Virus record (IMG/VR): IMGVR_UViG_2786546475_000019
Span: 974-64,973 of that record
DNA from: a virus
Length of the DNA: 64,000 nucleotides
Strand: one strand, 5' to 3'
Part shown: positions 856 through 60,403 of the stretch, in pieces
Position numbering within the stretch: position 1 is the first letter of the stretch
Layout of the letters: each line of letters starts with the position of its first letter
Position numbers and translations under genes: made by a program
The notes under the pieces: generated by a model
Told to the model about the DNA's origin: nothing
Databases searched by the model: none
The model's input: the letters and a program-made list of their open reading frames with translations, nothing else

Positions 856-2217
856 ATGTCACAAGAATCTAAACTTACCTCTGTTTTGTCGCTGCATTTC
901 GATTTTGACGCGAAGTCTTTACTTTGCGGCATGAATCCCGGTTCAGATCGATACTTGACGCCAAACCCGGTTCAATCGCTAGTAGATAGCTTATTTGCTG
1001 GTTGGAATAGCCAGGAAAGCTTGAAAGCCATCACTAATGGCAATCTCGCTAAAATCGATCCGCGATTCACTAAAGCGGACGACGTAGCTAGTTTCGCTGC
1101 TAAACAGCGTCAAACTTTCCGTTCTGAATTCAGACCGGGGACAGACTTGTGGGCAGCTCTTTGCGGCAAGTCTGACAAGTTCATCGCCATTGGACCAGCA
1201 CCTGCAAAGGGGCAGCCTGATGAACGTTTAAAGATTCCCGTTGAATCGATCTACGCGGTCCTTAATCTTTGGTGCGGTACCAAAGCGAATGGCATGACCG
1301 TATCGGGCAACAGGCGTATGCTTGCGCTACTGTTTGTTCTGGCCCTTGAATATGCGGAAGCATTCGCGGAAGCATTAGGGGCAGGGAAAACGAACGAAGA
1401 CGCGGAAGCTGTTGCTAAAAAGACAGTGAAAGCTCATCGGATTCCCGTAGTATTCAAATCGTGGGACACGTTCCAAGATTTGACTAGCGAGCAAATTGCG
1501 GACAATGAACGGGTTCACCAGTCCAACTATACGGAATTGGATCAGGTACGTTTGGCCGTTAAGATCAAACGCGAAGACTGGGGACTGTCCAAGCGGGATA
1601 TCGCTCGACAGATTCCGGGTTTGCGGACCGTAGCCAAAAAGACTGGCGAACTACGCATTAACCAGCGTAGGGCGTCCAATGCAACGGATCGTGCCGATCT
1701 TGTCATCTATGCCGATGACGGGCTGGATATGAACGTCATGGACCGGTTGACCACGGACAACGTAGAAAGCTACGTTGAAGGTGGACCGATTCCAGTGAAA
1801 CGGATCGCTTTCGAACACGTTCCCTTCCTCATCGACGCTACCAAAGAGTACAGCAGTACCCACGCTGCTATTCTTAAAGCGGTTTACCCTGATGCTGTTT
1901 TCAGTGAAGGGGAGGCTATTGGCATCGATGCCGATTCTAAAGCTTTGGAACGCTATTTTCGGTATATTATCGAACATAGCGGTTCAGCGAAACAAGCTTT
2001 GACGATCAAGCAATTACGCGATGCGATCACAAAAATTCCGTCGTCCAAAGACGTGGAAGTATCGCTACGCAAGCTGTACGAAGTGATTGCCGCTGGCGAT
2101 CCAAACGCACTAGCGTTACCAGCTTTGAAAGCTTCAGCGTGGGCCACAATTGTGGATCGCGAAGCGGAAGCGGAAGCGGAAGCGGAAGCGGAAGCGGAAG
2201 CGGAATCCGCCAACTAG
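856..2217 (+). CDS. hypothetical protein with a C-terminal (Glu-Ala)n tail
   Basis: 453-aa ORF with a GGAAGGA ribosome-binding site 8 nt upstream. Ends in EAEAEAEAEAEAEAEA, encoded by 8x GAAGCG at 2161-2208. Confidence 0.6.
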   Translation: MSQESKLTSVLSLHFDFDAKSLLCGMNPGSDRYLTPNPVQSLVDSLFAGWNSQESLKAITNGNLAKIDPRFTKADDVASFAAKQRQTFRSEFRPGTDLWAALCGKSDKFIAIGPAPAKGQPDERLKIPVESIYAVLNLWCGTKANGMTVSGNRRMLALLFVLALEYAEAFAEALGAGKTNEDAEAVAKKTVKAHRIPVVFKSWDTFQDLTSEQIADNERVHQSNYTELDQVRLAVKIKREDWGLSKRDIARQIPGLRTVAKKTGELRINQRRASNATDRADLVIYADDGLDMNVMDRLTTDNVESYVEGGPIPVKRIAFEHVPFLIDATKEYSSTHAAILKAVYPDAVFSEGEAIGIDADSKALERYFRYIIEHSGSAKQALTIKQLRDAITKIPSSKDVEVSLRKLYEVIAAGDPNALALPALKASAWATIVDREAEAEAEAEAEAEAESAN

Positions 2218-33403: not shown

Positions 33404-33612
33404 GCCAAAGCCAACTTGAAGCTTACGCCAGACAACGTAAGTTTAGGCCCAAGATGGAAAATGTTCAAATTTGTGAACAGTGCGACCACTTAATACGTGA
33501 TCGCTACTGTTCCAAATTTGGCAAGTGTCCTGACGCTCAAAAAGATTTCTTTAAAGCCCTTGAACGAAGTAAATGTCCTTTAGAGAAATTTCCGTCGCAG
33601 CTCAGCGAATAG
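33400..33612 (+). CDS. small zinc-ribbon protein
   Basis: CEQCDH...CSKFGKCPD. Confidence 0.35.
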   Translation: MSQSQLEAYARQRKFRPKMENVQICEQCDHLIRDRYCSKFGKCPDAQKDFFKALERSKCPLEKFPSQLSE

Positions 33613-33996
33613 AATTCTAACTTGCTTAGGAGTTAACTCTAACAAACGCCCGATTTCCGAATACGTATAGTATTGAAGTCGTAAACTTACAGCCCATCGC
33701 TCCTCGACAGTTAGCCTATCTAGGTCAAACTGATCGAGGAATTCTTCTGCACTTCTTGATAATTCTTCAATATCGCCTAACGCTTCGGTATCATTGTTTG
33801 TTTGCATTTTCTTTCGACGACGGTAAGCGTCAATACCTCTCGACCGTAGTAAGGTTCTTAAGTGTGAGATGAATTTCTTTTCCTCAACTAGCTCATGATA
33901 ATTCTCCCACGCTTGTAAAAATTCCAAAGATAGCGAGCAGTCAAATTTAGTTTCAAACTCTCGCAACAAGTAAACATAATCGTCGATCCTTCGCAT
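33580..33996 (-). CDS. HTH protein resembling sigma-70 region 4
   Basis: C-terminal YSEIGRLLELTPKQVRILFAELRRK. Last gene of the minus-strand nucleotide operon. Confidence 0.4.
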   Translation of the reverse strand: MRRIDDYVYLLREFETKFDCSLSLEFLQAWENYHELVEEKKFISHLRTLLRSRGIDAYRRRKKMQTNNDTEALGDIEELSRSAEEFLDQFDLDRLTVEERWAVSLRLQYYTYSEIGRLLELTPKQVRILFAELRRKFL

Positions 33997-34005
33997 GATA
34001 GTCTC

Positions 34006-34593
34006 CTACACTGCTGTTAAGTCTAGCCAACACAATTTTTTGTAAATTTTAGCAGTCAACAACGTATCATAAAGAGCGTCATGCAAACTAGCTTGATCGT
34101 AAGGAATGTCCAAAGCTTTGGCTAATGAGCTAAGCTTCACATCTGGGAACAATGGCTTATGGCCCCGAAGCTCACATCTATCATTGATAAAGTGAGCATA
34201 ATCCATGGTGTCTCTACAGAACCCGTGGAAGTGGAGTCCATAAGTTGCCGACCCATATAGTTTCTCCAACATAGGCCTATCAAAATCTTTGTAGTTGTGT
34301 CCAACTGGCAAGATTCTAGACCATTCCGCTGAGAAGTTTAACCGTTCAACCCAGTCTTCAAACGCATCCATTGCTTGGTCCTGAGTCAATCCATGGATGC
34401 TGGCTTTAGCTGCGTAGGGCGAAGTGATATTTACTTCTGGTTTTATCAACCACTGAACCGCTAGATGTTCAACAGGATCAAGATTATCATTAAGAGGAAT
34501 CATAGCAACTTGCCAGACCTCATCTAGCTCTACATCCGTTCCTGTCGTCTCAGTATCAATGCAGACTAACAAACTTCCTTTATGGTTTAACAT
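34006..34593 (-). CDS. DnaQ-like DEDDh 3'-5' exonuclease
   Basis: Exo I CIDTETTG, Exo II HNYKDFDRPML, Exo III HDALYDTLLTAKIY. Confidence 0.65.
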   Translation of the reverse strand: MLNHKGSLLVCIDTETTGTDVELDEVWQVAMIPLNDNLDPVEHLAVQWLIKPEVNITSPYAAKASIHGLTQDQAMDAFEDWVERLNFSAEWSRILPVGHNYKDFDRPMLEKLYGSATYGLHFHGFCRDTMDYAHFINDRCELRGHKPLFPDVKLSSLAKALDIPYDQASLHDALYDTLLTAKIYKKLCWLDLTAV

Positions 34594-35230
34594 TTTCTAG
34601 GCCCCCAGAATTAAGACCTTTGATAGACTTAGCCAGTTTTAGGGTCTTCGCAATCAAATCCTGAATGCTTCCATCATTTTCCAAAATGAAAGTTGCACGC
34701 TCCTTGAACCGTCCAACATCTTCGGAGACGTGCTCAGGTTTAGGAGGAATCTTGCCCGGACGTTCAAGATAAATTGTAACATCGAACAAATCAAACTCGT
34801 TATCAAACCTAACGTCGTCAGCCAAGAATGAATTTGACCCCATGAAATTTAAAACGCCTCGGACGTGAGCGTCCTTATTAAGCGTTCGAACAATCCCCGT
34901 CCCAAAATATTGCATCAACATTCGAGGAGTCTGCATGATAGGATGGTCCCAATGAGCCACTCGTTCAATTCCTCGAAGCGAAACTCCGCTACGTGTTTGG
35001 AAATGGAGACAAAACTTACGAATAACTCTGGGCCCGATTACTCGTTCATTGATGCGAATGCCTTTGAAGAAACTTTCAAGCCAGAAACATCGCTCCAAAC
35101 CAAAAGTCAAAGACAACGCACTTTTCAAATGTTTAGCCAACGGATGATAGTAAAGCTCTAGCTCTTGGGTAAGAACTTGAGCCACGAGACTTTTTCCACT
35201 TCCTTTGTAGCCAATGATACCTACTCTCAT
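34580..35230 (-). CDS. deoxynucleoside monophosphate kinase (T4 gp1-like)
   Basis: P-loop GYKGSGKS. C-terminal ILENDGSIQDLIAKTLKLAK aligns with T4 gp1 ITNDGSLEELFSKIKNTLK. Confidence 0.6.
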   Translation of the reverse strand: MRVGIIGYKGSGKSLVAQVLTQELELYYHPLAKHLKSALSLTFGLERCFWLESFFKGIRINERVIGPRVIRKFCLHFQTRSGVSLRGIERVAHWDHPIMQTPRMLMQYFGTGIVRTLNKDAHVRGVLNFMGSNSFLADDVRFDNEFDLFDVTIYLERPGKIPPKPEHVSEDVGRFKERATFILENDGSIQDLIAKTLKLAKSIKGLNSGGLENVKP

Positions 35231-35655
35231 TCTTTTTCTCCTTTTTCTGGATTACCGAAACAGTTGTAACAAATACCTTCTACTAAGCAATAAGCTTCAC
35301 AATCCCCGCAATGTTCGCCAAGGTCTGTAGGAATACCATGATATTCGATAGGCTTATTGTGCTCTGTTGCGTAGTCCAACTCAGCTTGAACGCCGATTGA
35401 TTGTCTCCAACCCCACTGAGTTAGAACTATCAAAGATTCACAAAAGCTCAAATACTCTAAGTCAATCTTTTCCCAAAAGTCCCAAGTGGTGGCCACGTTG
35501 GACATATGTTTCTGAAGCTCATGACTGTGAGTAATAGGGCTGTAAACGTTGGTCCCATTCTGAACCAAACGGGCCGCGTACCTTGTGACTACTCCAAACC
35601 GATGGTCTATCATTCGAGAATCAGAGTGAGTGTAAGGGGTAGCTAAATATATCAT
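35227..35655 (-). CDS. nucleoside 2-deoxyribosyltransferase / DNPH1 (Rcl)-like protein (DUF1937-like)
   Basis: N-terminal MIYLATPYTH and a SIGVQAELDYA segment matching the NDT-family nucleophile motif (SxGxxxExGyA). Cys-rich C-terminal tail. Confidence 0.45.
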   Translation of the reverse strand: MIYLATPYTHSDSRMIDHRFGVVTRYAARLVQNGTNVYSPITHSHELQKHMSNVATTWDFWEKIDLEYLSFCESLIVLTQWGWRQSIGVQAELDYATEHNKPIEYHGIPTDLGEHCGDCEAYCLVEGICYNCFGNPEKGEKE

Positions 35656-36347
35656 TTGCTTCTCCGGTTAGCTTGATAATTTGCGATTGAAAACCCACGA
35701 GGAGTCATACTACGAATCTCTTTTACGTTAGGGTGTGATCCTCCAATTTTACCATATTGCCGGGAGTATCCATCTTCTGGTATCACTTTCTTTTTAGGCG
35801 GCATCTTAAACCCGCCACCTGTCCACAGGTATGTTTCCTTCGGGTACGCGTCCCGTGGAGCAATATATTGTGGCCAAGTAGGGTGTTCATCATCTTCTGG
35901 TAAGTACCCACCGTATTCGTACGGGTGAAACTTGTAATCTGGTTTACGCCACAAAGATGATAGTCTCGATTTAGGATTCTCAATGAACCACGGACATTGC
36001 AACTCTGTGAAAACGCGACGACACCAGATAGCGTAACGTGCAGCTTTGTATTGGAAGTCTGGATCGTGGCCTTCTTTCGAGGGCCAGTGAATAATTCCAG
36101 AGACTGCCAAGTCGGTACAAACAGGGAACGCCGCCCCAAATACCACTTCCTTTCCTTGAAAAGTATCAATGATACGCCTAACTTGTTCCAGGTCGTGAAG
36201 GTCAGCCTTGTGGAAATGAATCACGTTGTCCCCGATCCGTTGTCGATGATCTACGTGCTTTATATCGTAAGCATGACATTCGTAACCTGCTCTGGCCCAA
36301 GGATGAAGTAACACCCCGGAGTGATCGTACAAGCTTAAAACTATCAT
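35652..36347 (-). CDS. C5-pyrimidine methyltransferase-like catalytic core without a target-recognition domain
   Basis: Motif I-like LSLYDHSG, motif IV FPVCTDLAVSG (Pro-Cys catalytic dipeptide), motif VI FIENPKS. Only 231 aa, so no room for a target-recognition domain. Confidence 0.45.
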   Translation of the reverse strand: MIVLSLYDHSGVLLHPWARAGYECHAYDIKHVDHRQRIGDNVIHFHKADLHDLEQVRRIIDTFQGKEVVFGAAFPVCTDLAVSGIIHWPSKEGHDPDFQYKAARYAIWCRRVFTELQCPWFIENPKSRLSSLWRKPDYKFHPYEYGGYLPEDDEHPTWPQYIAPRDAYPKETYLWTGGGFKMPPKKKVIPEDGYSRQYGKIGGSHPNVKEIRSMTPRGFSIANYQANRRSK

Positions 36348-37168
36348 ACGGCCACGTCACCTTTGATAGCCGGATGGGGATTGTAACCTTCAAGAATAAT
36401 ATCTTCCCACCGAAGTGATAAAATATTCTCCAAAGGAGATAACACCGGATCAGCTTGCCTTGCAAAACGAAGCTTTGGAGCTTCTTTAGCTGGGCGTCTC
36501 AACTGTAGGTTGACTTGATCTACGTGGTTGTTGTAGATATGAGCGTCGCCAAACGTATGGTAATACGTCTTGGGTTTAAGGTCCGTGGCCCACGCCAAAA
36601 TGTACATAAGCAACACGTAGGATGCAATGTTAAACGGAACGCCAAGAAACATATCAGCAGAGCGTTGATACATTTTCAAGGACAGTTCTCCATTTGATAC
36701 GTAGCATTGGAAAAACATATGGCACGGCGGTAAGGCCGCATCTCCACCTGGAAGGTGATGTTTTGGGTGCCAAGCAGAGCAAATAACTCGTCGGCTGTTT
36801 GGAGACTCAGTTAGGCAATCAAGCACGTACTGAATCTGATCTACGCCGTTGAAGTCTCTCCACATCTTCCCATACACCGGACCAAGCTCTCCGGCAGCGT
36901 CTGCCCATTCGTCCCAGATATGAACATTCAGGTCTTGTAACGATTTGATATTTGTCTCTCCTCGAAGAAACCACATCAGTTCCTCAAATACCAACCGCAA
37001 AGGTACAAACTTTGTAGTGAGCAATGGGAAGTGACTACTGATTGTTCCGTAAATTTGAGGGCCGAATAGACGAATTGTTCCGGTCCCTGTTCTATCATCA
37101 TGTGTTTCTCCGTGGAGCAAAACACTTTTAAGTAATGACAGATACTGTTGTTCTAACGCTGAATACAT
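36344..37168 (-). CDS. thyA: thymidylate synthase homolog (ThyA fold; dTMP synthase or dUMP/dCMP-modifying paralog)
   Basis: Near end-to-end match to the ThyA signature: DRTGTGT, WDEWAD, GPVYGKMWR, SRRVICSAWHP, ALPPCHMFFQCYV, GDAHIYNNHVDQ. Confidence 0.8.
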   Translation of the reverse strand: MYSALEQQYLSLLKSVLLHGETHDDRTGTGTIRLFGPQIYGTISSHFPLLTTKFVPLRLVFEELMWFLRGETNIKSLQDLNVHIWDEWADAAGELGPVYGKMWRDFNGVDQIQYVLDCLTESPNSRRVICSAWHPKHHLPGGDAALPPCHMFFQCYVSNGELSLKMYQRSADMFLGVPFNIASYVLLMYILAWATDLKPKTYYHTFGDAHIYNNHVDQVNLQLRRPAKEAPKLRFARQADPVLSPLENILSLRWEDIILEGYNPHPAIKGDVAV

Positions 37169-37585: not shown

Positions 37586-38236
37586 TTAAACCATATTCAA
37601 AGTAATTGGAGGTTTGTCGCTTTTTAAAAGTTTAGCTAGCTTTTCTAACGCTCGCTTTTCAAGTTGACGAACTCTTTCTCGCGAGATATTAAGAGTTTCC
37701 CCAATAGTCTTAAGAGGAATCCCTTGGGCTCGTAGCCTCAAAACTAAAGCATCTCGACTATTTAACTCAAGAAAAGCTTTTTCTAGAGCAATAAGCTCCT
37801 CTTGCCATTCTATCAAATCCCTATCAAGACATTCTAAAGGTGTAACAGGGTTATTAAATAGCCCGTGTAAGGTTTGAAACATTGGAGCACGAGCTATAGC
37901 AGCTTTAGCTCTGTCAAGATGAGCTGGATTTGGAGATACTTTAATTAACTCCACCTTGGTTTTCATGTAAGTTATCATTCGTTGTTTCACCCACGGAGTG
38001 GCGTAAGTTGAAAACTGATAACCTTTACTAGGGTCAAATTTTTTGACCGCCTGACATAACCCACTCATTCCTTCTTGAATTAAATCGTCTAAATCAAGCT
38101 TAGAATTTTTCTTGGCAAAAGACACCGCTATCTTGATAACCAATCCTTGATTATCTAACACTAACCGATTGAGTGCTTCATCAGCTTCCTTTCTAGCAGA
38201 ATGATATTTTTGTAATAACTCGTCATTAGTATCCAC
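37586..38236 (-). CDS. RNA polymerase sigma factor (sigma-70 family, group 3/4-like)
   Basis: Region 2 (GLVIKIAVSFAKKNSKLDLDDLIQEGMSGLCQAVKKFDPSKGYQFSTYATPWVKQRM) and region 4 HTH (LKTIGETLNISRERVRQLEKRALEKL). Confidence 0.7.
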   Translation of the reverse strand: MDTNDELLQKYHSARKEADEALNRLVLDNQGLVIKIAVSFAKKNSKLDLDDLIQEGMSGLCQAVKKFDPSKGYQFSTYATPWVKQRMITYMKTKVELIKVSPNPAHLDRAKAAIARAPMFQTLHGLFNNPVTPLECLDRDLIEWQEELIALEKAFLELNSRDALVLRLRAQGIPLKTIGETLNISRERVRQLEKRALEKLAKLLKSDKPPITLNMV

Positions 38237-39304: not shown

Positions 39305-39682
39305 CTAAATAATATCACTTTTACCATCCGGTTTCTCCGTATTTGATAACAATATTGCAGTCCGCGTAACGCCGCCTATGGTCCACGTATTAGGGAGTAG
39401 CTCAATAAGCTCCTCTGCAATCTCTTGCATCTCCTCTTTATCAATGCTATTTGAAGTTACAAGAATATCAACGCCATGGTCGTAGACCATGTTTCGCCCG
39501 CAGAATGAACAGTTTTCGGCCATATAAGCGTAGACTATTTGGAAAGGAGAAAGATCTTCAACAGTGATATAAACGTTGTAGGTGTCAATACTGATACTCA
39601 AAGATTGAGCATCTTCAATATCAGACAATGCTTCACGTAACTTGCCTGCCGTTAAAGTCTTATCTTCTAGTTTCATCTTCAT
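39305..39682 (-). CDS. hypothetical protein
   Basis: 125 aa. Confidence 0.35.
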   Translation of the reverse strand: MKMKLEDKTLTAGKLREALSDIEDAQSLSISIDTYNVYITVEDLSPFQIVYAYMAENCSFCGRNMVYDHGVDILVTSNSIDKEEMQEIAEELIELLPNTWTIGGVTRTAILLSNTEKPDGKSDII

Positions 39683-40206
39683 AGGTCCCCGTCCTTTCGG
39701 TTGTTTGATTCTTCGACGGTAAAACCTTTCTTGTACCGTCCTTCAAGTTTGTTTCGATTCATTTGTAGCACTTCTTCAAGTGTTGAGCCAATTGTTTGAG
39801 CGGCTTCCCGTATGTAGCCTATTAAAAGGCCATGACACCGTTTCACAAGTTCTCGGTCAAAAGGCAGACCTTGATAAAAGACTTTCTTTTTATGTTCTGC
39901 CAATGTTTCGAGGGTTTCTAAAATGCTGTCCCCACTATCTACCCATATCTCGAACGGCTCAATATCAATTGACGCCGCAAGCAGCAAAACGTAGAACAAC
40001 ATATCGCCAAGCTCAAGTTTAATATGTCGAGCGTCGTCCGTGTTCCTCGTTTCAAAGAACTCAGCCACGATCCCATCAACAGCAGTCGCGAATCGCGGAA
40101 CGTCGACCTCTTTATGAAGGTTCCTTTGAGCTTCAAAATACTCGTGAAGATCGCTTGATTGAGGTGATAATTTTTCGTTAATAAAGTTAAGATGTTCTTT
40201 AAACAT
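39679..40206 (-). CDS. mazG: MazG-like nucleoside triphosphate pyrophosphohydrolase
   Basis: KLELGDMLFYVLLLAASIDIEP and NRNKLEGRY match the all-alpha NTP-PPase signature. Confidence 0.6.
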   Translation of the reverse strand: MFKEHLNFINEKLSPQSSDLHEYFEAQRNLHKEVDVPRFATAVDGIVAEFFETRNTDDARHIKLELGDMLFYVLLLAASIDIEPFEIWVDSGDSILETLETLAEHKKKVFYQGLPFDRELVKRCHGLLIGYIREAAQTIGSTLEEVLQMNRNKLEGRYKKGFTVEESNNRKDGDL

Positions 40207-40710: not shown

Positions 40711-41024
40711 TACTTCTGCTCCTCGAAATGCTTAGATGGAAAACGATGCCAGCCAAATAATAACCGCTCCATGTTCCGTGGTTCGTCGATCTCAGCAACC
40801 GGACGAGCACCACCGACCGTGGTGAACTGGACGTACATACACTTCTTACGCTTATACCCAATACACAGATGGCCTTTCAACCGTTTGATAGGTCCACGGT
40901 ACATGTAGTATTTGGTGCGACTGAGCCGCCGGAACCGTTTCGTTAACCTTTCCATGACTGTTCCCAAGCGTGCAACGCTTTGAGCAAGTTCCTCAGTTGA
41001 ACAACTTAAAAGGTTATTTATCAT
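40710..41024 (-). CDS. hypothetical protein
   Basis: 104 aa. Confidence 0.35.
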   Translation of the reverse strand: MINNLLSCSTEELAQSVARLGTVMERLTKRFRRLSRTKYYMYRGPIKRLKGHLCIGYKRKKCMYVQFTTVGGARPVAEIDEPRNMERLLFGWHRFPSKHFEEQK

Positions 41025-41377
41025 TTGTTAAACTCCTCAATATATTTTATCAACTCAGGTGTCGGTTCTGCAACAATAATCGGTAACATTAGTCCGATCT
41101 CACTGATACTTCGAGCCAACGTTTCAACATAATCTTGAGGTGCGACCCGTATAGGGTTTGGTGTTAGCTCGATATCTTCAATTTTCAAAACTTTTTGAGT
41201 CCGATTATCCGGCCCACGAACCACGTAACATTTGATAGAGTCGTACCCTACCAACTTACACGCTTCCAATCTTGCGTTGCCGCCAAGGACCACGTACTTT
41301 TTCTTAAGTTTGAAGCCTGGAGTCGAAAGCACACAAGCCGCAGCTCCGAGGGCCGCCATAAATTCTCTACGTTCCAT
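41021..41377 (-). CDS. hypothetical protein with ParB-like GxxR and (P)NP boxes in inverted order and an RR-containing N-terminus
   Basis: VVLGGNARLEACKLVG and ELTPNPIRV. N-terminal MERREFMAALGAAACVLS resembles a twin-arginine signal. Confidence 0.3.
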   Translation of the reverse strand: MERREFMAALGAAACVLSTPGFKLKKKYVVLGGNARLEACKLVGYDSIKCYVVRGPDNRTQKVLKIEDIELTPNPIRVAPQDYVETLARSISEIGLMLPIIVAEPTPELIKYIEEFNK

Positions 41378-42082: not shown

Positions 42083-42991
42083 TCATAACATCAACTCCCG
42101 CTCGAAACCAGCTGCATTTTCGTGCCCGCCACCATTGTAGAACTCGGCCACGGTTCTTGCTTTAATGTAACACTCTGCCGTAGACCGGATGCTGTACCGG
42201 TATTTCTTGGCAACGCCATCGTAGAACCAAGACATTGCTGGTTTACCAGTAAGGTTGCAAATCTCATGAAGCAAGTCACTGATAATATCTCCGTGAGTGT
42301 TGTTAAGACACGGAAGGAATCCAAATGGAGTCACGACTCCTGTGAGAATAGCCCCGTCCTCACCTACTGTTCTTTTTAGAATCCCTTTGATTTTATGGGC
42401 CAAATACTCATTGATAACTTTACCTTTATCGATAAGCTCAGAAATATCAAGCTCGGCCCATACTCCAAAATTCCAGTCCGTGGCCCGAAGGGCACGGTCC
42501 ACGTTAATGGTTGCGGGGTATTTCCAATTCCAAAGATCACGATCTTCGGTATATTGAACGAGAGCTTCAACATTCCCGCTCCCCATGGAACAGTTCATAA
42601 ACTCCCAAGTAAGTCTAGCCCCGGACTTCTCCATATTCAACTTGATAAACAACTTATGTTTCTGGATGATAGTTTCTTGCCCACTCTCTTGGATATCGTA
42701 ACCTGTCGCTTCTTTAGCTTGAGTTATCAATTTCTCAACCGCAGATTTATGGTGATCTAAGACCACAACCTGATCAAAATTCCGAGCGTATTGTTCCAGC
42801 ACTTCCAAGTCATAGCTGAAATCAACAATATACAGCTGGTTGCCTTGTGCTTCTGGAGCAGGTTGCCCGTAATGCACTGGAAGGTATTCAGTGAAATCTT
42901 CCCCATGTTTCATCCAAAGAACATAGGCTGAGCAGAATCCATCCAAACAACTGGCATGGTAAATGATAGTTACGTCTTGAGTGTTAGGCAT
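42083..42991 (-). CDS. DHH-DHHA1 phosphoesterase (NrnA/RecJ-like)
   Basis: DHH motifs IYHASCLDGFCSA and VVVLDHHKS. DHHA1 motif GGGHENAAGF. Confidence 0.65.
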   Translation of the reverse strand: MPNTQDVTIIYHASCLDGFCSAYVLWMKHGEDFTEYLPVHYGQPAPEAQGNQLYIVDFSYDLEVLEQYARNFDQVVVLDHHKSAVEKLITQAKEATGYDIQESGQETIIQKHKLFIKLNMEKSGARLTWEFMNCSMGSGNVEALVQYTEDRDLWNWKYPATINVDRALRATDWNFGVWAELDISELIDKGKVINEYLAHKIKGILKRTVGEDGAILTGVVTPFGFLPCLNNTHGDIISDLLHEICNLTGKPAMSWFYDGVAKKYRYSIRSTAECYIKARTVAEFYNGGGHENAAGFERELML

Positions 42992-54628: not shown

Positions 54629-55396
54629 TTAACTCCCAAGAATATAAAGTGCTTCAACCACGGAAGATCGAATCTCGCCAGCAGATTGATAGATTCGATA
54701 CTCGTACTTTTCAGTCCATTCCTGAGCTTCCAAGTATGTGTTCTTGTAGTGATTGATAACAACAGTGCCTTGTCGGTCCTTGGCCCACGAAACAATTTCC
54801 TCAAGCGAGATCAGATCGAACCCTTGTGTCTCATCGTAAGGCGGGTCCAAGTAGAATAACGCATCGACACTATCATATGAAGCTAGCTTCTTCCAGTCCC
54901 AATTCTCGATTTGCCACTTGCTAATACGAGCACGAAGCAGGGGCCAGATTCTCATTTTACTGGCTACATTCGGCTGCTTCTGTGAGAAGTTGCGAGCGTA
55001 GTTAAGCCTCCGCCCCAAGTAAGACATAACCGCTGTCACGTACCACTTTGCTGCACGCTTCACGGGGTTACTTGATAGCTGCCAAGTCTTTTTGCAATGC
55101 AACCATTCTTCTTCGGAAGAAGGATGATACTTTTTAAGTTCTTCGACAAGCTCCTCGTAGTGGTTACGGAACGCTCGATAGAAGTCAATGATCCCGGAGT
55201 CTTTATCATTAAACACCATGTACGGGAACTGAGCCACGTTCAATGATACCATTCCTGTCCCGCCAAACACGTCAATAAATTTCTTGTGCGTGTCTCGCAT
55301 GTGGTTCAGAATAGGAAGAATATGTTGCAAGGCCCGTGCCTTAGACCCTATCATTCGAAACGGAGCTTCACGTTTCTTGAAGTCTTTATCAGTCAT
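54629..55396 (-). CDS. DNA N6-adenine methyltransferase (Dam / D12 class)
   Basis: Motif I DVFGGTG near the N-terminus and motif IV DPPY near the C-terminus. Confidence 0.7.
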   Translation of the reverse strand: MTDKDFKKREAPFRMIGSKARALQHILPILNHMRDTHKKFIDVFGGTGMVSLNVAQFPYMVFNDKDSGIIDFYRAFRNHYEELVEELKKYHPSSEEEWLHCKKTWQLSSNPVKRAAKWYVTAVMSYLGRRLNYARNFSQKQPNVASKMRIWPLLRARISKWQIENWDWKKLASYDSVDALFYLDPPYDETQGFDLISLEEIVSWAKDRQGTVVINHYKNTYLEAQEWTEKYEYRIYQSAGEIRSSVVEALYILGS

Positions 55397-59082: not shown

Positions 59083-59374
59083 GGGCCAAAGACCTTGAGT
59101 TCTCTTTTAAGTCTCGGAACTGACGTGTAAATTAGTAAGCGGTTATCATTTTGCGTGAGCAAATGATAATTCTCGCGTGCTCCCGCGTGTCCCGCACGTG
59201 CGACTATTTAAATACGCGACGTGCGTAAATGATATGATACATGGTTTTCAAAATACTTGAAAATATTTTCAAAATACGGGGCAATCCTGCCCGGTTTTAT
59301 TCGTAGCTATAGGGGGAAAGTAGACTGTTTTACTTTCCAAAACGACTATCATATCATTTGTGGAGAAGTCCAAC

Positions 59375-60403
59375 ATGGCAGAAGAAACTCAAGCTACCGA
59401 AACTATCATTTCAGAAGGATTGACTCAAGAGCAGTTCGAATCCGTGGGTAGCGACATTCAGGCGATTTCTATCAATGAGATCACCGTCCCTGAAGTTAAG
59501 CTTCGTGGCGTGAACACCGAAGGGGAAGAATACTTGGAACTCAAGGATTCTATCAAATCGCAAGGACTGTTGCAGAACATTACTGTACGTCCCGTCGAAA
59601 TCGCTGGCAAGCAAGGCTACGAACTTATCACTGGGCTCCAGCGATATACTGCTTGCAAGGAACTCGGACATGAGACTATCGACGCTCGTGTGAAAGAAAT
59701 GTCCGAGCAAGAAGCTTGGTTGTGGATGATCCACGAAAACACTCAACGTGTTACGCAAAAAGCGTCAGATATCACCAAGCTCTTGAAGCGTCTGATCGCC
59801 AAAGATCCAACGATGTCTATTCCACGACTCGCGAAGCTTTTGTCGAAGTCCGTGCCCCAAGTACAGAACTATCTGGCACTTGATAAACTGACCGACGAGG
59901 CAAAGGAATTGGTCGATGATGAAACCATCGGTTTGACCAACGCAGTTGCTCTCGCCAAGCTCCCACCTGAGGAGCAGGAAGACTTGCTTGCTGACGCGTC
60001 AACAATGACCGTTGCTGAATTTGTTCCACTTGTAAACGAACGAAAAGAAAAGGTTGATCAAGCCAATCGTGAAGCTCGTGAACAGGAAAAGAACACGTTT
60101 TCTCCGAAACCAAAAGCTCGCAAGAAAGACGATCTCGTCACCGAGCTTGGAATTATCATGGGCACGGAGACTGGCACTTCGCTTCTTATGGAGTGCTTGA
60201 ACGGTCAGGATGTTGATACTTCCAACCAGAATGTCAAGGCAGTTATCACTCAGACAATGGAGTGGGTCCTGAACCTTGATCCAGCGTCCGTCGACGCTCA
60301 ACGAGCGAAATGGGAAGACGCCAAAAAGAAGCGGGAAGAACGAGAAAAAGCGAAAGCTGCCGCTCGTGCCGAACGTGAAAAGGCGAAAGCCCTGGAAATC
60401 TAA
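59375..60403 (+). CDS. ParB-like nuclease-domain protein
   Basis: SQGLLQNITVRP...YELITGLQRYTACKELG is a ParB N-terminal signature. Lys/Glu-rich C-terminus. ATG at 59375 preferred over the GTG at 59360 because a GGAG ribosome-binding site lies at 59362-59365. Confidence 0.6.
   Translation: MAEETQATETIISEGLTQEQFESVGSDIQAISINEITVPEVKLRGVNTEGEEYLELKDSIKSQGLLQNITVRPVEIAGKQGYELITGLQRYTACKELGHETIDARVKEMSEQEAWLWMIHENTQRVTQKASDITKLLKRLIAKDPTMSIPRLAKLLSKSVPQVQNYLALDKLTDEAKELVDDETIGLTNAVALAKLPPEEQEDLLADASTMTVAEFVPLVNERKEKVDQANREAREQEKNTFSPKPKARKKDDLVTELGIIMGTETGTSLLMECLNGQDVDTSNQNVKAVITQTMEWVLNLDPASVDAQRAKWEDAKKKREEREKAKAAARAEREKAKALEI

Follow-up and report, generated by a model that had tools for sequence, protein, structure and literature searches.

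DNA cytosine-5 methyltransferases (C5-MTases) and the enzymes of the thymidylate synthase (ThyA) family both proceed by attack of a cysteine on C6 of the pyrimidine, and the known nucleotide-level C5 enzymes use the ThyA/dCMP-hydroxymethylase fold. In DNMT3A and DNMT3B, which are CpG-specific, the target-recognition domain (TRD) is only a small loop. Methylation of CCWGG and GATC has been reported in Erwinia phages, in work that does not tell phage enzymes apart from those of the host and that could not be linked to PHROG 757, the family considered here. Activity in that family has been reported for a single member, the Dcm of phage K42 (a KarlJaspers-like Hanrivervirus), which is the trigger of retron Ec86/Eco1 (bioRxiv 10.1101/2023.08.16.553469; later publication, Cell Rep 2024;43:114857). 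According to the preprint, K42 Dcm raises 5-methylcytosine (5mC) on the Ec86 msDNA in vivo, as measured by LC-MS, and no such rise is seen when four residues, the catalytic cysteine among them, are mutated (C82A/E128A/K175A/K176A); expression of the enzyme is toxic, 5mC on msDNA is “high” in a host that already contains Dcm, and mutations of the motif in the double-stranded msDNA stem abolished defence (bioRxiv 10.1101/2023.08.16.553469). CCWGG specificity was assumed in that study from the host Dcm rather than mapped, the host being dcm+ (bioRxiv 10.1101/2023.08.16.553469). Our literature searches returned no mapped specificity for the family and no discussion of its missing TRD.

The window, a 64,000-nucleotide stretch of the genome of a marine metagenome phage, encodes a small protein of this family within a string of overlapping genes, together with a second orphan methyltransferase:

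36344..37168, minus strand: canonical thymidylate synthase ThyA, upstream, with a 4-bp overlap with the MTase start (PF00303, E = 2.6e-97)
35652..36347, minus strand: small C5-cytosine DNA methyltransferase (PHROG 757 family, “phage Dcm-like”), 231 aa
35227..35655, minus strand: DUF1937/nucleoside 2-deoxyribosyltransferase-like protein, downstream, with a 4-bp overlap with the MTase stop (PF09152, E = 3.9e-19; PF05014, E = 1.7e-4; phrog_355)
34580..35230, minus strand: dNMP kinase, in the same overlapping gene string (PF21448, E = 9.6e-9; phrog_139, E = 7.4e-25)
54629..55396, minus strand: Dam-like D12-class N6-adenine DNA MTase, the second orphan MTase (PF02086, E = 1.3e-18; phrog_56, E = 3.9e-38)

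The methyltransferase reading frame starts with ATG and has the position and length given in the first-pass annotation, which did not mention the strand. NCBI already has an identical protein, named “Dcm methylase”, and the phrog_757 “DNA methyltransferase” profile covers residues 1–229 with profile positions 15–220 of 247 (E = 2.4e-60). Homologues occur in about 1,490 phage records (1489 with a match), many of them annotated as cytosine MTase or Dcm, and every one of the 1489 lies below 60% identity to the window protein. The family comprises 976 clusters at 50% identity, and most of its 150 best representatives are 200–260 aa long, a range that the single-domain length of 231 aa fits. Carriers include Drexlerviridae, Jerseyvirus and Kagunavirus matches, coliphages of Dhillonvirus size, Vequintavirinae, Klebsiella phages, and the roseophages CRP-207 and CRP-2, whose “methylase” genes are the closest cultured relatives (54.5% and 50.6% identity). 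The same domain is also found as a fusion inside phage proteins of 1126–1397 aa, one of which is named helicase-like. Longer members of 292–453 aa carry extensions without any Pfam domain; two of these extensions are of low complexity, and some may reflect wrongly called start codons. The 231-aa protein thus belongs to a large family with existing annotation and does not represent a new kind of enzyme. That it might be one part of a TRD-containing MTase split by a frameshift, a caveat raised at the outset, is excluded, because the genes on either side are unrelated and overlap it by 4 bp each and because length is conserved in the family; 1462 of the 1489 phage matches cover at least 80% of the query.

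In terms of sequence similarity to known C5-MTases, Pfam and NCBIfam scans of the 231-aa protein returned no MTase match. PF00145, the profile search proposed in the first-pass annotation, gave no match at E ≤ 1, nor did PF00303 (thymidylate synthase) match this protein; PF00145 matches only 7 of 82 family members, weakly (best E = 0.0039). Against PDB sequences, the family profile produced sub-threshold matches only, to DNMT2 (4h0n, E = 0.3; an alignment limited to residues 1–87 and the generic motifs I–IV, and not significant) and to M.HaeIII (E = 1.2), and phmmer found nothing beyond these. With hhalign, the single sequence of DNMT3A gave a partial local alignment across motifs I–IV (E = 5e-4), and that of E. 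coli Dcm aligned over 72 columns comprising motifs IV–VI (E = 0.013, probability 3%).

The AlphaFold2 model (pLDDT 96.7) has the full β1–β7 topology of a class-I MTase, and structure comparison places this Rossmann-type fold closest to solved C5-MTases. Its best structural matches are DNMT3B, DNMT3A, a prophage C5-MTase, and M.HhaI, with DNMT3A/B as the top Foldseek matches (E ~1e-5); of the 327 residues of M.HhaI, approximately 180 can be aligned to the model. The description of the protein as a C5-MTase catalytic core, about 100 aa below the 327–328-aa chains of M.HhaI or M.HaeIII, therefore holds. The elements of this core map to the window as follows:

36315..36338, minus strand: motif I, SAM-binding loop LSLYDHSG (residues 4–11), a DNMT3-like SL[FY]D..G variant of FxGxG
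36096..36128, minus strand: motif IV, FPVCTDLAVSG (residues 74–84), with the codon of the catalytic Cys77 at 36117..36119
35967..35987, minus strand: motif VI, FIENPKS (residues 121–127), with Glu123 and with ENP replacing ENV
35835..35927, minus strand: conserved β6–β7 insert (residues 141–171), PYEYGGYLPEDDEHP..P.YIAPRDAYPK, family-specific, about 30 residues
35817..35840, minus strand: strand β7 at the motif VIII position, KETYLWTG (residues 170–177), strand E172–177 in the model
35727..35798, minus strand: variable, indel-prone loop at the TRD position (residues ~184–207, ~24 aa), from column entropy
35667..35726, minus strand: C-terminal helices with R..TPRGF.A (residues 208–227) at the motif IX/X position, H208–213 and H217–227 in the model

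The strings of motifs I, IV, and VI named in the first-pass annotation are all found at these residues when checked against the DNA, and their canonical order is that of the classical bacterial C5-MTases. Conservation was counted over 82 divergent homologues, in which F74, P75, C77, G84, E123, N124, and P125, and likewise Asp28, are at least 90% conserved. Motif I (L6 in 78/82, D8 in 63/82, G11 in 62/82) is set by hhalign on VLSLFDGIATG of DNMT3A. Motif IV (C77 in 80/82, P75 in 76/82, G84 in 81/82) aligns to PCQ of DNMT2 and M.HaeIII, to E. coli Dcm, and to PCNDLS of DNMT3A. The Pro-Cys dipeptide that had been read into this motif stands only with respect to Cys77, as the window protein reads Pro75-Val76-Cys77; position 76 is Pro in 64 and Val in 8 of the 82 sequences, the family consensus being FPPC and Val at –1 being common to the marine subclade. 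Motif VI (E123 in 81/82, N124 in 76/82, P125 in 81/82) lines up with LENV of E. coli Dcm. Strand β7, at the putative motif VIII position, carries K-x-T with no canonical R-x-R (K170 in 80/82, T172 in 79/82, W175 in 82/82). By eye, KETYLWTG resembles RARYFWGN in the DNMT3A sequence, a likeness that is not an alignment result. R212, P216, and G218 of the C-terminal motif are kept in 79, 77, and 80 of the 82 homologues, respectively, and the window protein has all family-invariant residues (FP.C, ENP, P142, Y168, K170, T172, W175, P183, R212, and TPRGF). Together, the conserved residues and the Foldseek matches put the motifs far beyond chance: the product of 35652..36347 is a genuine C5-methyltransferase core, and its family membership, its fold, and the conservation of its catalytic residues are established.

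A canonical TRD is indeed absent, with only ~30 residues (178–207) separating β7 from the C-terminal helices. The first-pass annotation had concluded that so short a protein cannot hold a sequence-reading domain and had suggested a nucleotide-level or sequence-independent enzyme, a step that is not supported, since the CpG-specific DNMT3A/B manage with a small TRD loop. The only candidate specificity element in the sequence is the loop at residues ~184–207, in which residues 191–200 are among the positions of highest column entropy (3.49 bits) and, in 48% of homologues, up to 15 extra columns are inserted after residue 193. The β6–β7 insert, by comparison, is among the regions of lowest column entropy, with P142 and Y168 invariant and D166 and K170 at least 95% conserved; in the model, it folds into a short helix (142–148) and is then mostly non-regular. 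It is a candidate substrate- or DNA-contact element.

Within the small “phage Dcm-like” PHROG 757 family, the 231-aa protein probably acts as a SAM-dependent DNA (cytosine-5) methyltransferase, an orphan enzyme that would counter restriction at a short motif. For the window protein, we infer the catalytic steps, action on DNA, some degree of sequence specificity, and a role against restriction; others have demonstrated in vivo that a homologue increases 5mC in DNA. As a product of the phage operon for replication and nucleotide metabolism, the enzyme would flip a cytosine out of the DNA, attack its C6 with Cys77 (motif IV), protonate N3 through Glu123 (motif VI), and pass a methyl group to C5 from SAM, which motifs I–III and the C-terminal helix would bind. 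The ~24-residue loop and the β6–β7 insert, possibly with DNMT3-like oligomerization, may provide limited sequence recognition, and, together with the Dam-like enzyme, the orphan methylase would mark a short motif in the phage DNA and so guard it from restriction by the host. The pairing of a Dam-like MTase with a small C5-MTase in one phage is also found in Drexlerviridae. The silence of PF00145 and NCBIfam, the sub-threshold profiles, Val in place of Pro, and K-x-T in place of R-x-R speak against this reading.

We regard it as improbable that the protein is instead a largely or wholly unspecific DNA C5-methyltransferase, one that modifies the majority of accessible cytosines or recognizes contexts as short as CpN. 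Such a “global” enzyme would be consistent with the ~30 residues that take the place of a canonical TRD, with putative DNA-facing parts that are highly conserved across phages of very different hosts, in contrast to the variability of TRDs in specific MTases, and with the toxicity of K42 Dcm and the “high” 5mC on msDNA in a Dcm-containing host. The composition of the phage, however, argues otherwise. GCGC occurs at 1 site compared with 176 ± 11 expected, and there is no GAGCTC, CTCGAG, or AGTACT site at all. As the GCGC deamination products GTGC/GCAC are not enriched, 5mC deamination is ruled out as the cause, and the loss of GCGC is attributable to selection rather than to 5mC decay. When 80 related loci with the MTase are taken together, observed/expected ratios are 0.1–0.3 for many C-containing palindromes and 0.34 for CCWGG; in the window, CCWGG occurs 45 times compared with 78.6 ± 8.7 expected, and it is absent from L007 and L008. 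This under-representation in the window and its relatives speaks against protection of CCWGG. Purging of GCGC and avoidance of C-containing sites would be pointless if all cytosines were C5-modified, which argues against global methylation, as does the closest fold, that of DNMT3A/B, which reads CpG through a small loop. The strong site avoidance in the phage and its relatives shows that protection by the methylase is narrow at best, and the global C5 transferase suggested in the first-pass annotation is at odds with a genome from which GCGC and several other C-containing sites have been almost eliminated.

An m5C methyltransferase of RNA (tRNA) or of single-stranded or structured nucleic acid, acting in the manner of DNMT2 and not on double-stranded DNA, appears highly improbable: the DNMT2 match comprises motifs I–IV only and is not significant, the top structural matches are DNA enzymes, and mutations in a double-stranded stem were what abolished defence in the K42 system.

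Very little weight can be given to a nucleotide-level C5 transferase, a methylase or hydroxymethylase of dCMP, dUMP, or dCTP that would work with ThyA, the dNMP kinase, and MazG to create a modified pool. The gene string is suggestive of such a role, with its 4-bp overlaps, its translational coupling to the ThyA, DUF1937/NDT-like, and dNMP kinase genes, and a MazG gene near the MTase; moreover, LC-MS of K42 msDNA alone does not separate DNA-level from nucleotide-pool methylation. The fold, however, is that of a class-I SAM MTase of the DNA C5-MTase type and not the ThyA/dCMP-hydroxymethylase fold, and the domain is fused with helicase-like proteins. The ThyA, DUF1937, and dNMP kinase neighbourhood also sets the window phage apart from its PHROG 757 relatives: homologues of ThyA, the dNMP kinase, DUF1937, or MazG lie within 5 kb of the MTase in 0 of 80 related viral loci, which rules out a conserved linkage to nucleotide-metabolism genes, and the neighbours in cultured phages are helicase, polymerase, or small early genes. 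Along its entire length, the neighbouring ThyA is 49% identical to E. coli ThyA, and it keeps PCH, PFNIASY, and, at the C-terminus, HPxIKxxVA[VI]; it is canonical and has the dUMP-specifying Asn, so that a dCMP/dUMP hydroxymethylase is ruled out for this neighbour. The argument that position beside ThyA implies a nucleotide-level or global enzyme is thus not supported, and the purging of GCGC speaks against wholesale cytosine replacement.

There is scarcely any likelihood that the C5-MTase fold transfers a non-methyl group (e.g., carboxymethyl from Cx-SAM) or makes 5mC only to begin a hypermodification. Pro-Val-Cys for Pro-Cys and K-x-T for R-x-R might point to an MTase-like protein that has lost catalysis and serves in DNA binding or regulation. 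This is hardly credible, as Cys, Glu-Asn-Pro, and the acidic residue of motif II are all kept and the Val variant is conserved through a whole subclade under evident purifying selection.

We conclude that the 231-aa protein, the probable short-motif C5-MTase described above, is an ordinary phage enzyme, given the in vivo rise in DNA 5-methylcytosine that one relative causes, and that modification of pyrimidines globally or at the nucleotide level is probably not its function. For annotation, the outcome is an ordinary phage orphan methylase and no new nucleotide-modification enzyme. The remaining interest is in the family, whose abundant ~230-aa C5-MTases escape PF00145 and lack a TRD, one member being a retron trigger. 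It is conceivable, if unlikely, that these proteins represent the minimal natural scaffold of a DNA C5-MTase, selecting targets with very short or relaxed specificity, in place of a TRD, through the ~24-residue loop and the insert or through DNA structure (ssDNA or msDNA-type hairpins). A mapped specificity would show the minimum of protein needed to read the sequence around a flipped cytosine, and could yield a compact methylation tool. The homologues P0208 and P0215 have eukaryote-like, low-complexity N-termini; these and the DNMT3-like motifs I and IV (SL[FY]D and C[NT]DL[SA]) might reflect an evolutionary link to DNMT3-type enzymes.

Among the known systems, the ThyA-family C5 transferases have an unrelated fold and depend on folate, in contrast to the SAM-dependent Rossmann fold of the phage protein. 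With M.HhaI, M.HaeIII, and E. coli Dcm, it shares the fold, the motif I-IV-VI order, and the catalytic Cys and Glu, whereas it has no small domain or TRD, is from ~100 aa (M.HhaI) to 240 aa (Dcm) shorter, and shows no close sequence relationship to the E. coli Dcm/EcoRII type. DNMT3A and DNMT3B are 12–15% identical to it; they have ENV, R-x-R, and a TRD loop of ~50 residues in a protein ~50 aa longer, and are without the β6–β7 insert, and we do not claim that the phage protein belongs to DNMT3. K42 Dcm was compared through an orthologue proxy from the same genus, Hanrivervirus, damhaus_42, a 711-bp gene with C82, E128, K175, and K176 exactly as described for K42 Dcm. K42 differs in host and clade from the marine metagenome phage of the window, and the enterobacterial enzyme has K175 and Pro-Pro-Cys where the window protein has Pro169 and Pro-Val-Cys. 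The proxy (236 aa) is nevertheless 41% identical to the window protein end to end (E = 1e-59), and C82, E128, and K176 of K42 Dcm correspond to C77, E123, and K170, the last pair (K170/K176) being among the four positions mutated in the K42 enzyme.

The small C5-methyltransferase-like gene of the window begins with ATG and encodes 231 residues (35652..36347, minus strand); the first-pass annotation gave the same coordinates without the strand. The motif strings that it quoted are all present when checked against the DNA: LSLYDHSG at residues 4-11, FPVCTDLAVSG at 74-84 and FIENPKS at 121-127. The Pro-Cys dipeptide claimed for motif IV is Pro75-Val76-Cys77 in this protein (the Cys77 codon reads ACA on the plus strand, 36117..36119); the family consensus is FPPC, and the valine is a variant of the protein's marine subclade. 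At each end the gene shares 4 bp with its neighbour, its start with the stop of ThyA upstream and its stop with the start of the DUF1937 gene downstream, leaving no room for a hidden exon encoding a target-recognition domain (TRD) or for a frameshifted continuation.

The PF00145 profile search that had been proposed returned no match for the protein at E ≤ 1, an NCBIfam scan of it gave none, and only 7 of 82 relatives match PF00145, weakly. A family profile compared with all PDB sequences reached DNMT2 (E 0.3) and M.HaeIII (E 1.2), covering motifs I-IV only. The PF00145 and NCBIfam nulls are decisively outweighed, and the protein is assigned as a C5-methyltransferase, by the following evidence. 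PHROG 757, "DNA methyltransferase", is matched end to end (E 2.4e-60), and D28, F74, P75, C77, G84, E123, N124 and P125 are at least 90% conserved across 82 aligned, divergent homologues. An AlphaFold2 model built from 81 sequences (mean pLDDT 96.7, pTM 0.92) contains the complete class-I methyltransferase sheet, β1-β7, and a Foldseek search with this model returns DNMT3A/B as all of the first 21 matches (E ~1e-5). Using hhalign, motifs I-IV align to DNMT3A (E 5e-4; sequence confirmed against PDB 5yx2) and motifs IV-VI to E. coli Dcm (E 0.013).

This protein adds a divergent new member to a family that is already recognised and annotated. Homologues were found by tblastn in 1489 phage records, with at least 80% of the query covered in 1462 and every one below 60% identity; hosts include Escherichia, Klebsiella, Salmonella, Campylobacter and Vibrio, the groups include Drexlerviridae, Jerseyvirus, Vequintavirinae and roseophages CRP-207 and CRP-2, and many are already labelled DNA cytosine methyltransferase or Dcm. 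When 1.84 billion representatives were searched exhaustively, 976 clusters were recovered at E ≤ 1e-3, and most of the best 150 of these are 200-260 aa long. An identical protein sequence is deposited in NCBI under the name "MAG: Dcm methylase [Acidobacteria bacterium]" and recurs in Tara assemblies; the contigs are up to 72 kb long. The literature searched contains neither a mapped specificity for any member nor a discussion of how the family selects its targets. The remaining interest is at the family level, in enzymes that are very abundant, invisible to PF00145 and devoid of a TRD.

A study of phage K42 identified its dcm gene, 711 bp long, as the trigger of retron Ec86 (bioRxiv 10.1101/2023.08.16.553469; later Cell Rep 2024;43:114857). 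As reported there, K42 is 95.4% identical to KarlJaspers, escaper phages have a disrupted dcm gene, and expression of K42 Dcm increases 5mC in purified msDNA by LC-MS, a rise absent with the C82A/E128A/K175A/K176A mutant; the target was assumed to be CCWGG, as for host Dcm, and was probed by msDNA mutation only, in a dcm+ host (bioRxiv 10.1101/2023.08.16.553469). KarlJaspers is a Hanrivervirus, and gene 42 of Hanrivervirus damhaus, our proxy for the K42 orthologue, is 711 bp long with C82, E128, K175 and K176 at exactly the K42 Dcm positions. Its product aligns with the window protein over the whole length (41% identity, E 1e-59), so that the latter shares its family with an enzyme reported to methylate cytosine at C5.

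We consider it likely that the protein is an orphan DNA C5-methyltransferase of the phage, one whose recognition apparatus is minimal. It would methylate DNA through that apparatus, probably at short sites, in anti-restriction marking performed jointly with a second orphan enzyme:

54629..55396, minus strand: Dam-like D12-class N6-adenine methyltransferase (PF02086, E 1.3e-18)

Despite this gene, GATC is mildly rarer in the window (200 sites versus 241 ± 14 expected).

Relaxed or absent sequence specificity, which has a small chance of being correct, is opposed by the purging of GCGC and other C-containing sites in the window phage and its relatives. GCGC occurs once in the window (1324..1327) versus 176 ± 11 expected from dinucleotide-preserving shuffles (Markov o/e 0.01, z -18.6); GAGCTC, CTCGAG and AGTACT have zero sites (about 19, 11 and 8 expected), and CCWGG is rarer (45 versus 78.6 ± 8.7). 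Deamination of 5mC is ruled out as the cause of the GCGC loss, which reflects selection, as GTGC/GCAC are not enriched and GCGA, GCGT and GCGG are. This suggests a GCGC-specific endonuclease, from the host or encoded by the phage; GCGC is normal in other phages with the same methyltransferase. In the 80 relatives pooled, many C-containing palindromes and many 6-bp palindromes have o/e 0.1-0.3, with CCWGG at 0.34 and CCGG at 0.50. We infer that such purging would not persist if all cytosines were C5-modified, so that global or pool-level modification is unlikely, and that the site protected in this clade is probably a different one from CCWGG. GATA/TATC (o/e 1.59) and TATCA/TGATA (o/e 1.58) are strongly over-represented in the window (z ~17), and TATA is depleted (o/e 0.48). 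Two marine phage contigs carrying homologue P0078 (L007 and L008) have zero CCWGG in 10.7 kb, with ~10 expected.

An RNA or structured-ssDNA substrate is improbable. The small C5-methyltransferase fold forms one domain of far longer phage proteins in BFVD, A0A6J5SE15 (1397 aa, named helicase/UvrB-like) and A0A6J5NPY6 (1126 aa), at TM 0.69-0.70 and 26-27% identity, and these fusions, one of them helicase-like, fit a DNA substrate. Two further homologues, P0208 (453 aa, with a DNMT3-type motif IV, PPCNDLS) and P0215 (401 aa), have long acidic, Ser/Pro-rich low-complexity N-terminal extensions that contain no domain in a Pfam scan and look eukaryote- or giant-virus-like.

The neighbourhood bears on a transferase acting at the nucleotide level:

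34006..37168, minus strand: five genes overlapping by 4 to 14 bp (ThyA, C5-methyltransferase, DUF1937/nucleoside 2-deoxyribosyltransferase-like, dNMP kinase, RNase T-type exonuclease)
39679..40206, minus strand: MazG-like pyrophosphatase, replication module
42083..42991, minus strand: DHH/DHHA1 phosphoesterase, replication module
41021..41377, minus strand, and 59360..60403, plus strand: two ParB-like genes, replication module
37586..38236 and 33580..33996: two sigma-factor-like genes

A comparison with the 80 nearest viral loci (609 kb, with flanks of up to 5 kb) at a threshold of E ≤ 1e-5 gave no homologue of the window ThyA, DUF1937, dNMP kinase, exonuclease, MazG, Dam or sigma factor, and the five-gene arrangement recurs in none of these loci. 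The methyltransferase adjoins GP88-family and small early genes in marine contigs, and helicase, polymerase, ligase or small early genes in cultured phages; the ThyA linkage is thus idiosyncratic to the window phage. ThyA itself is canonical in sequence: from end to end it is 49% identical to E. coli ThyA, and it keeps PCH, the Asn of PFNIASY that specifies dUMP, and the conserved C-terminal end. Known nucleotide-level C5 enzymes have the ThyA fold, which the window protein lacks. The LC-MS of K42 msDNA formally leaves DNA-level and pool-level methylation unseparated, but the context, the canonical ThyA, the fold, the site avoidance and the fusions do not bear out the nucleotide-level or global transferase first proposed, and we regard nucleotide-level action as very unlikely. 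Transfer of another group, or the first step of a hypermodification, is equally remote, and an inactive protein slightly more so.

For the favoured DNA C5-methyltransferase, the AlphaFold2 model predicts the following anatomy:

Residues 2-11: β1, motif I
Residues 23-28: β2 with Asp28, motif II
Residues 34-47: β-hairpin and β3
Residues 68-84: β4, motif IV
Residues 82-115: two helices
Residues 120-127: β5, motif VI
Residues 138-140: β6
Residues 141-171: mostly non-regular segment
Residues 172-177: β7
Residues 196-227: three short helices

By column entropy, residues 141-180 belong to the best-conserved regions (P142, Y168 and W175 invariant; D166, K170 and T172 nearly so), and residues ~184-207, the site of the TRD in canonical enzymes, belong to the most variable. 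The latter stretch is also the principal place for insertions, which add as many as 15 columns there in 48% of homologues. Model and entropy together uphold the earlier view that a canonical TRD is absent, a loop of ~24 residues being left in its place. Whereas canonical C5-methyltransferases carry a TRD, in the small family β6 and β7 are separated by a conserved insert, and the motif VIII R-x-R of canonical enzymes would correspond to K170-x-T172 in the window protein, the two being equated by their position in β7.
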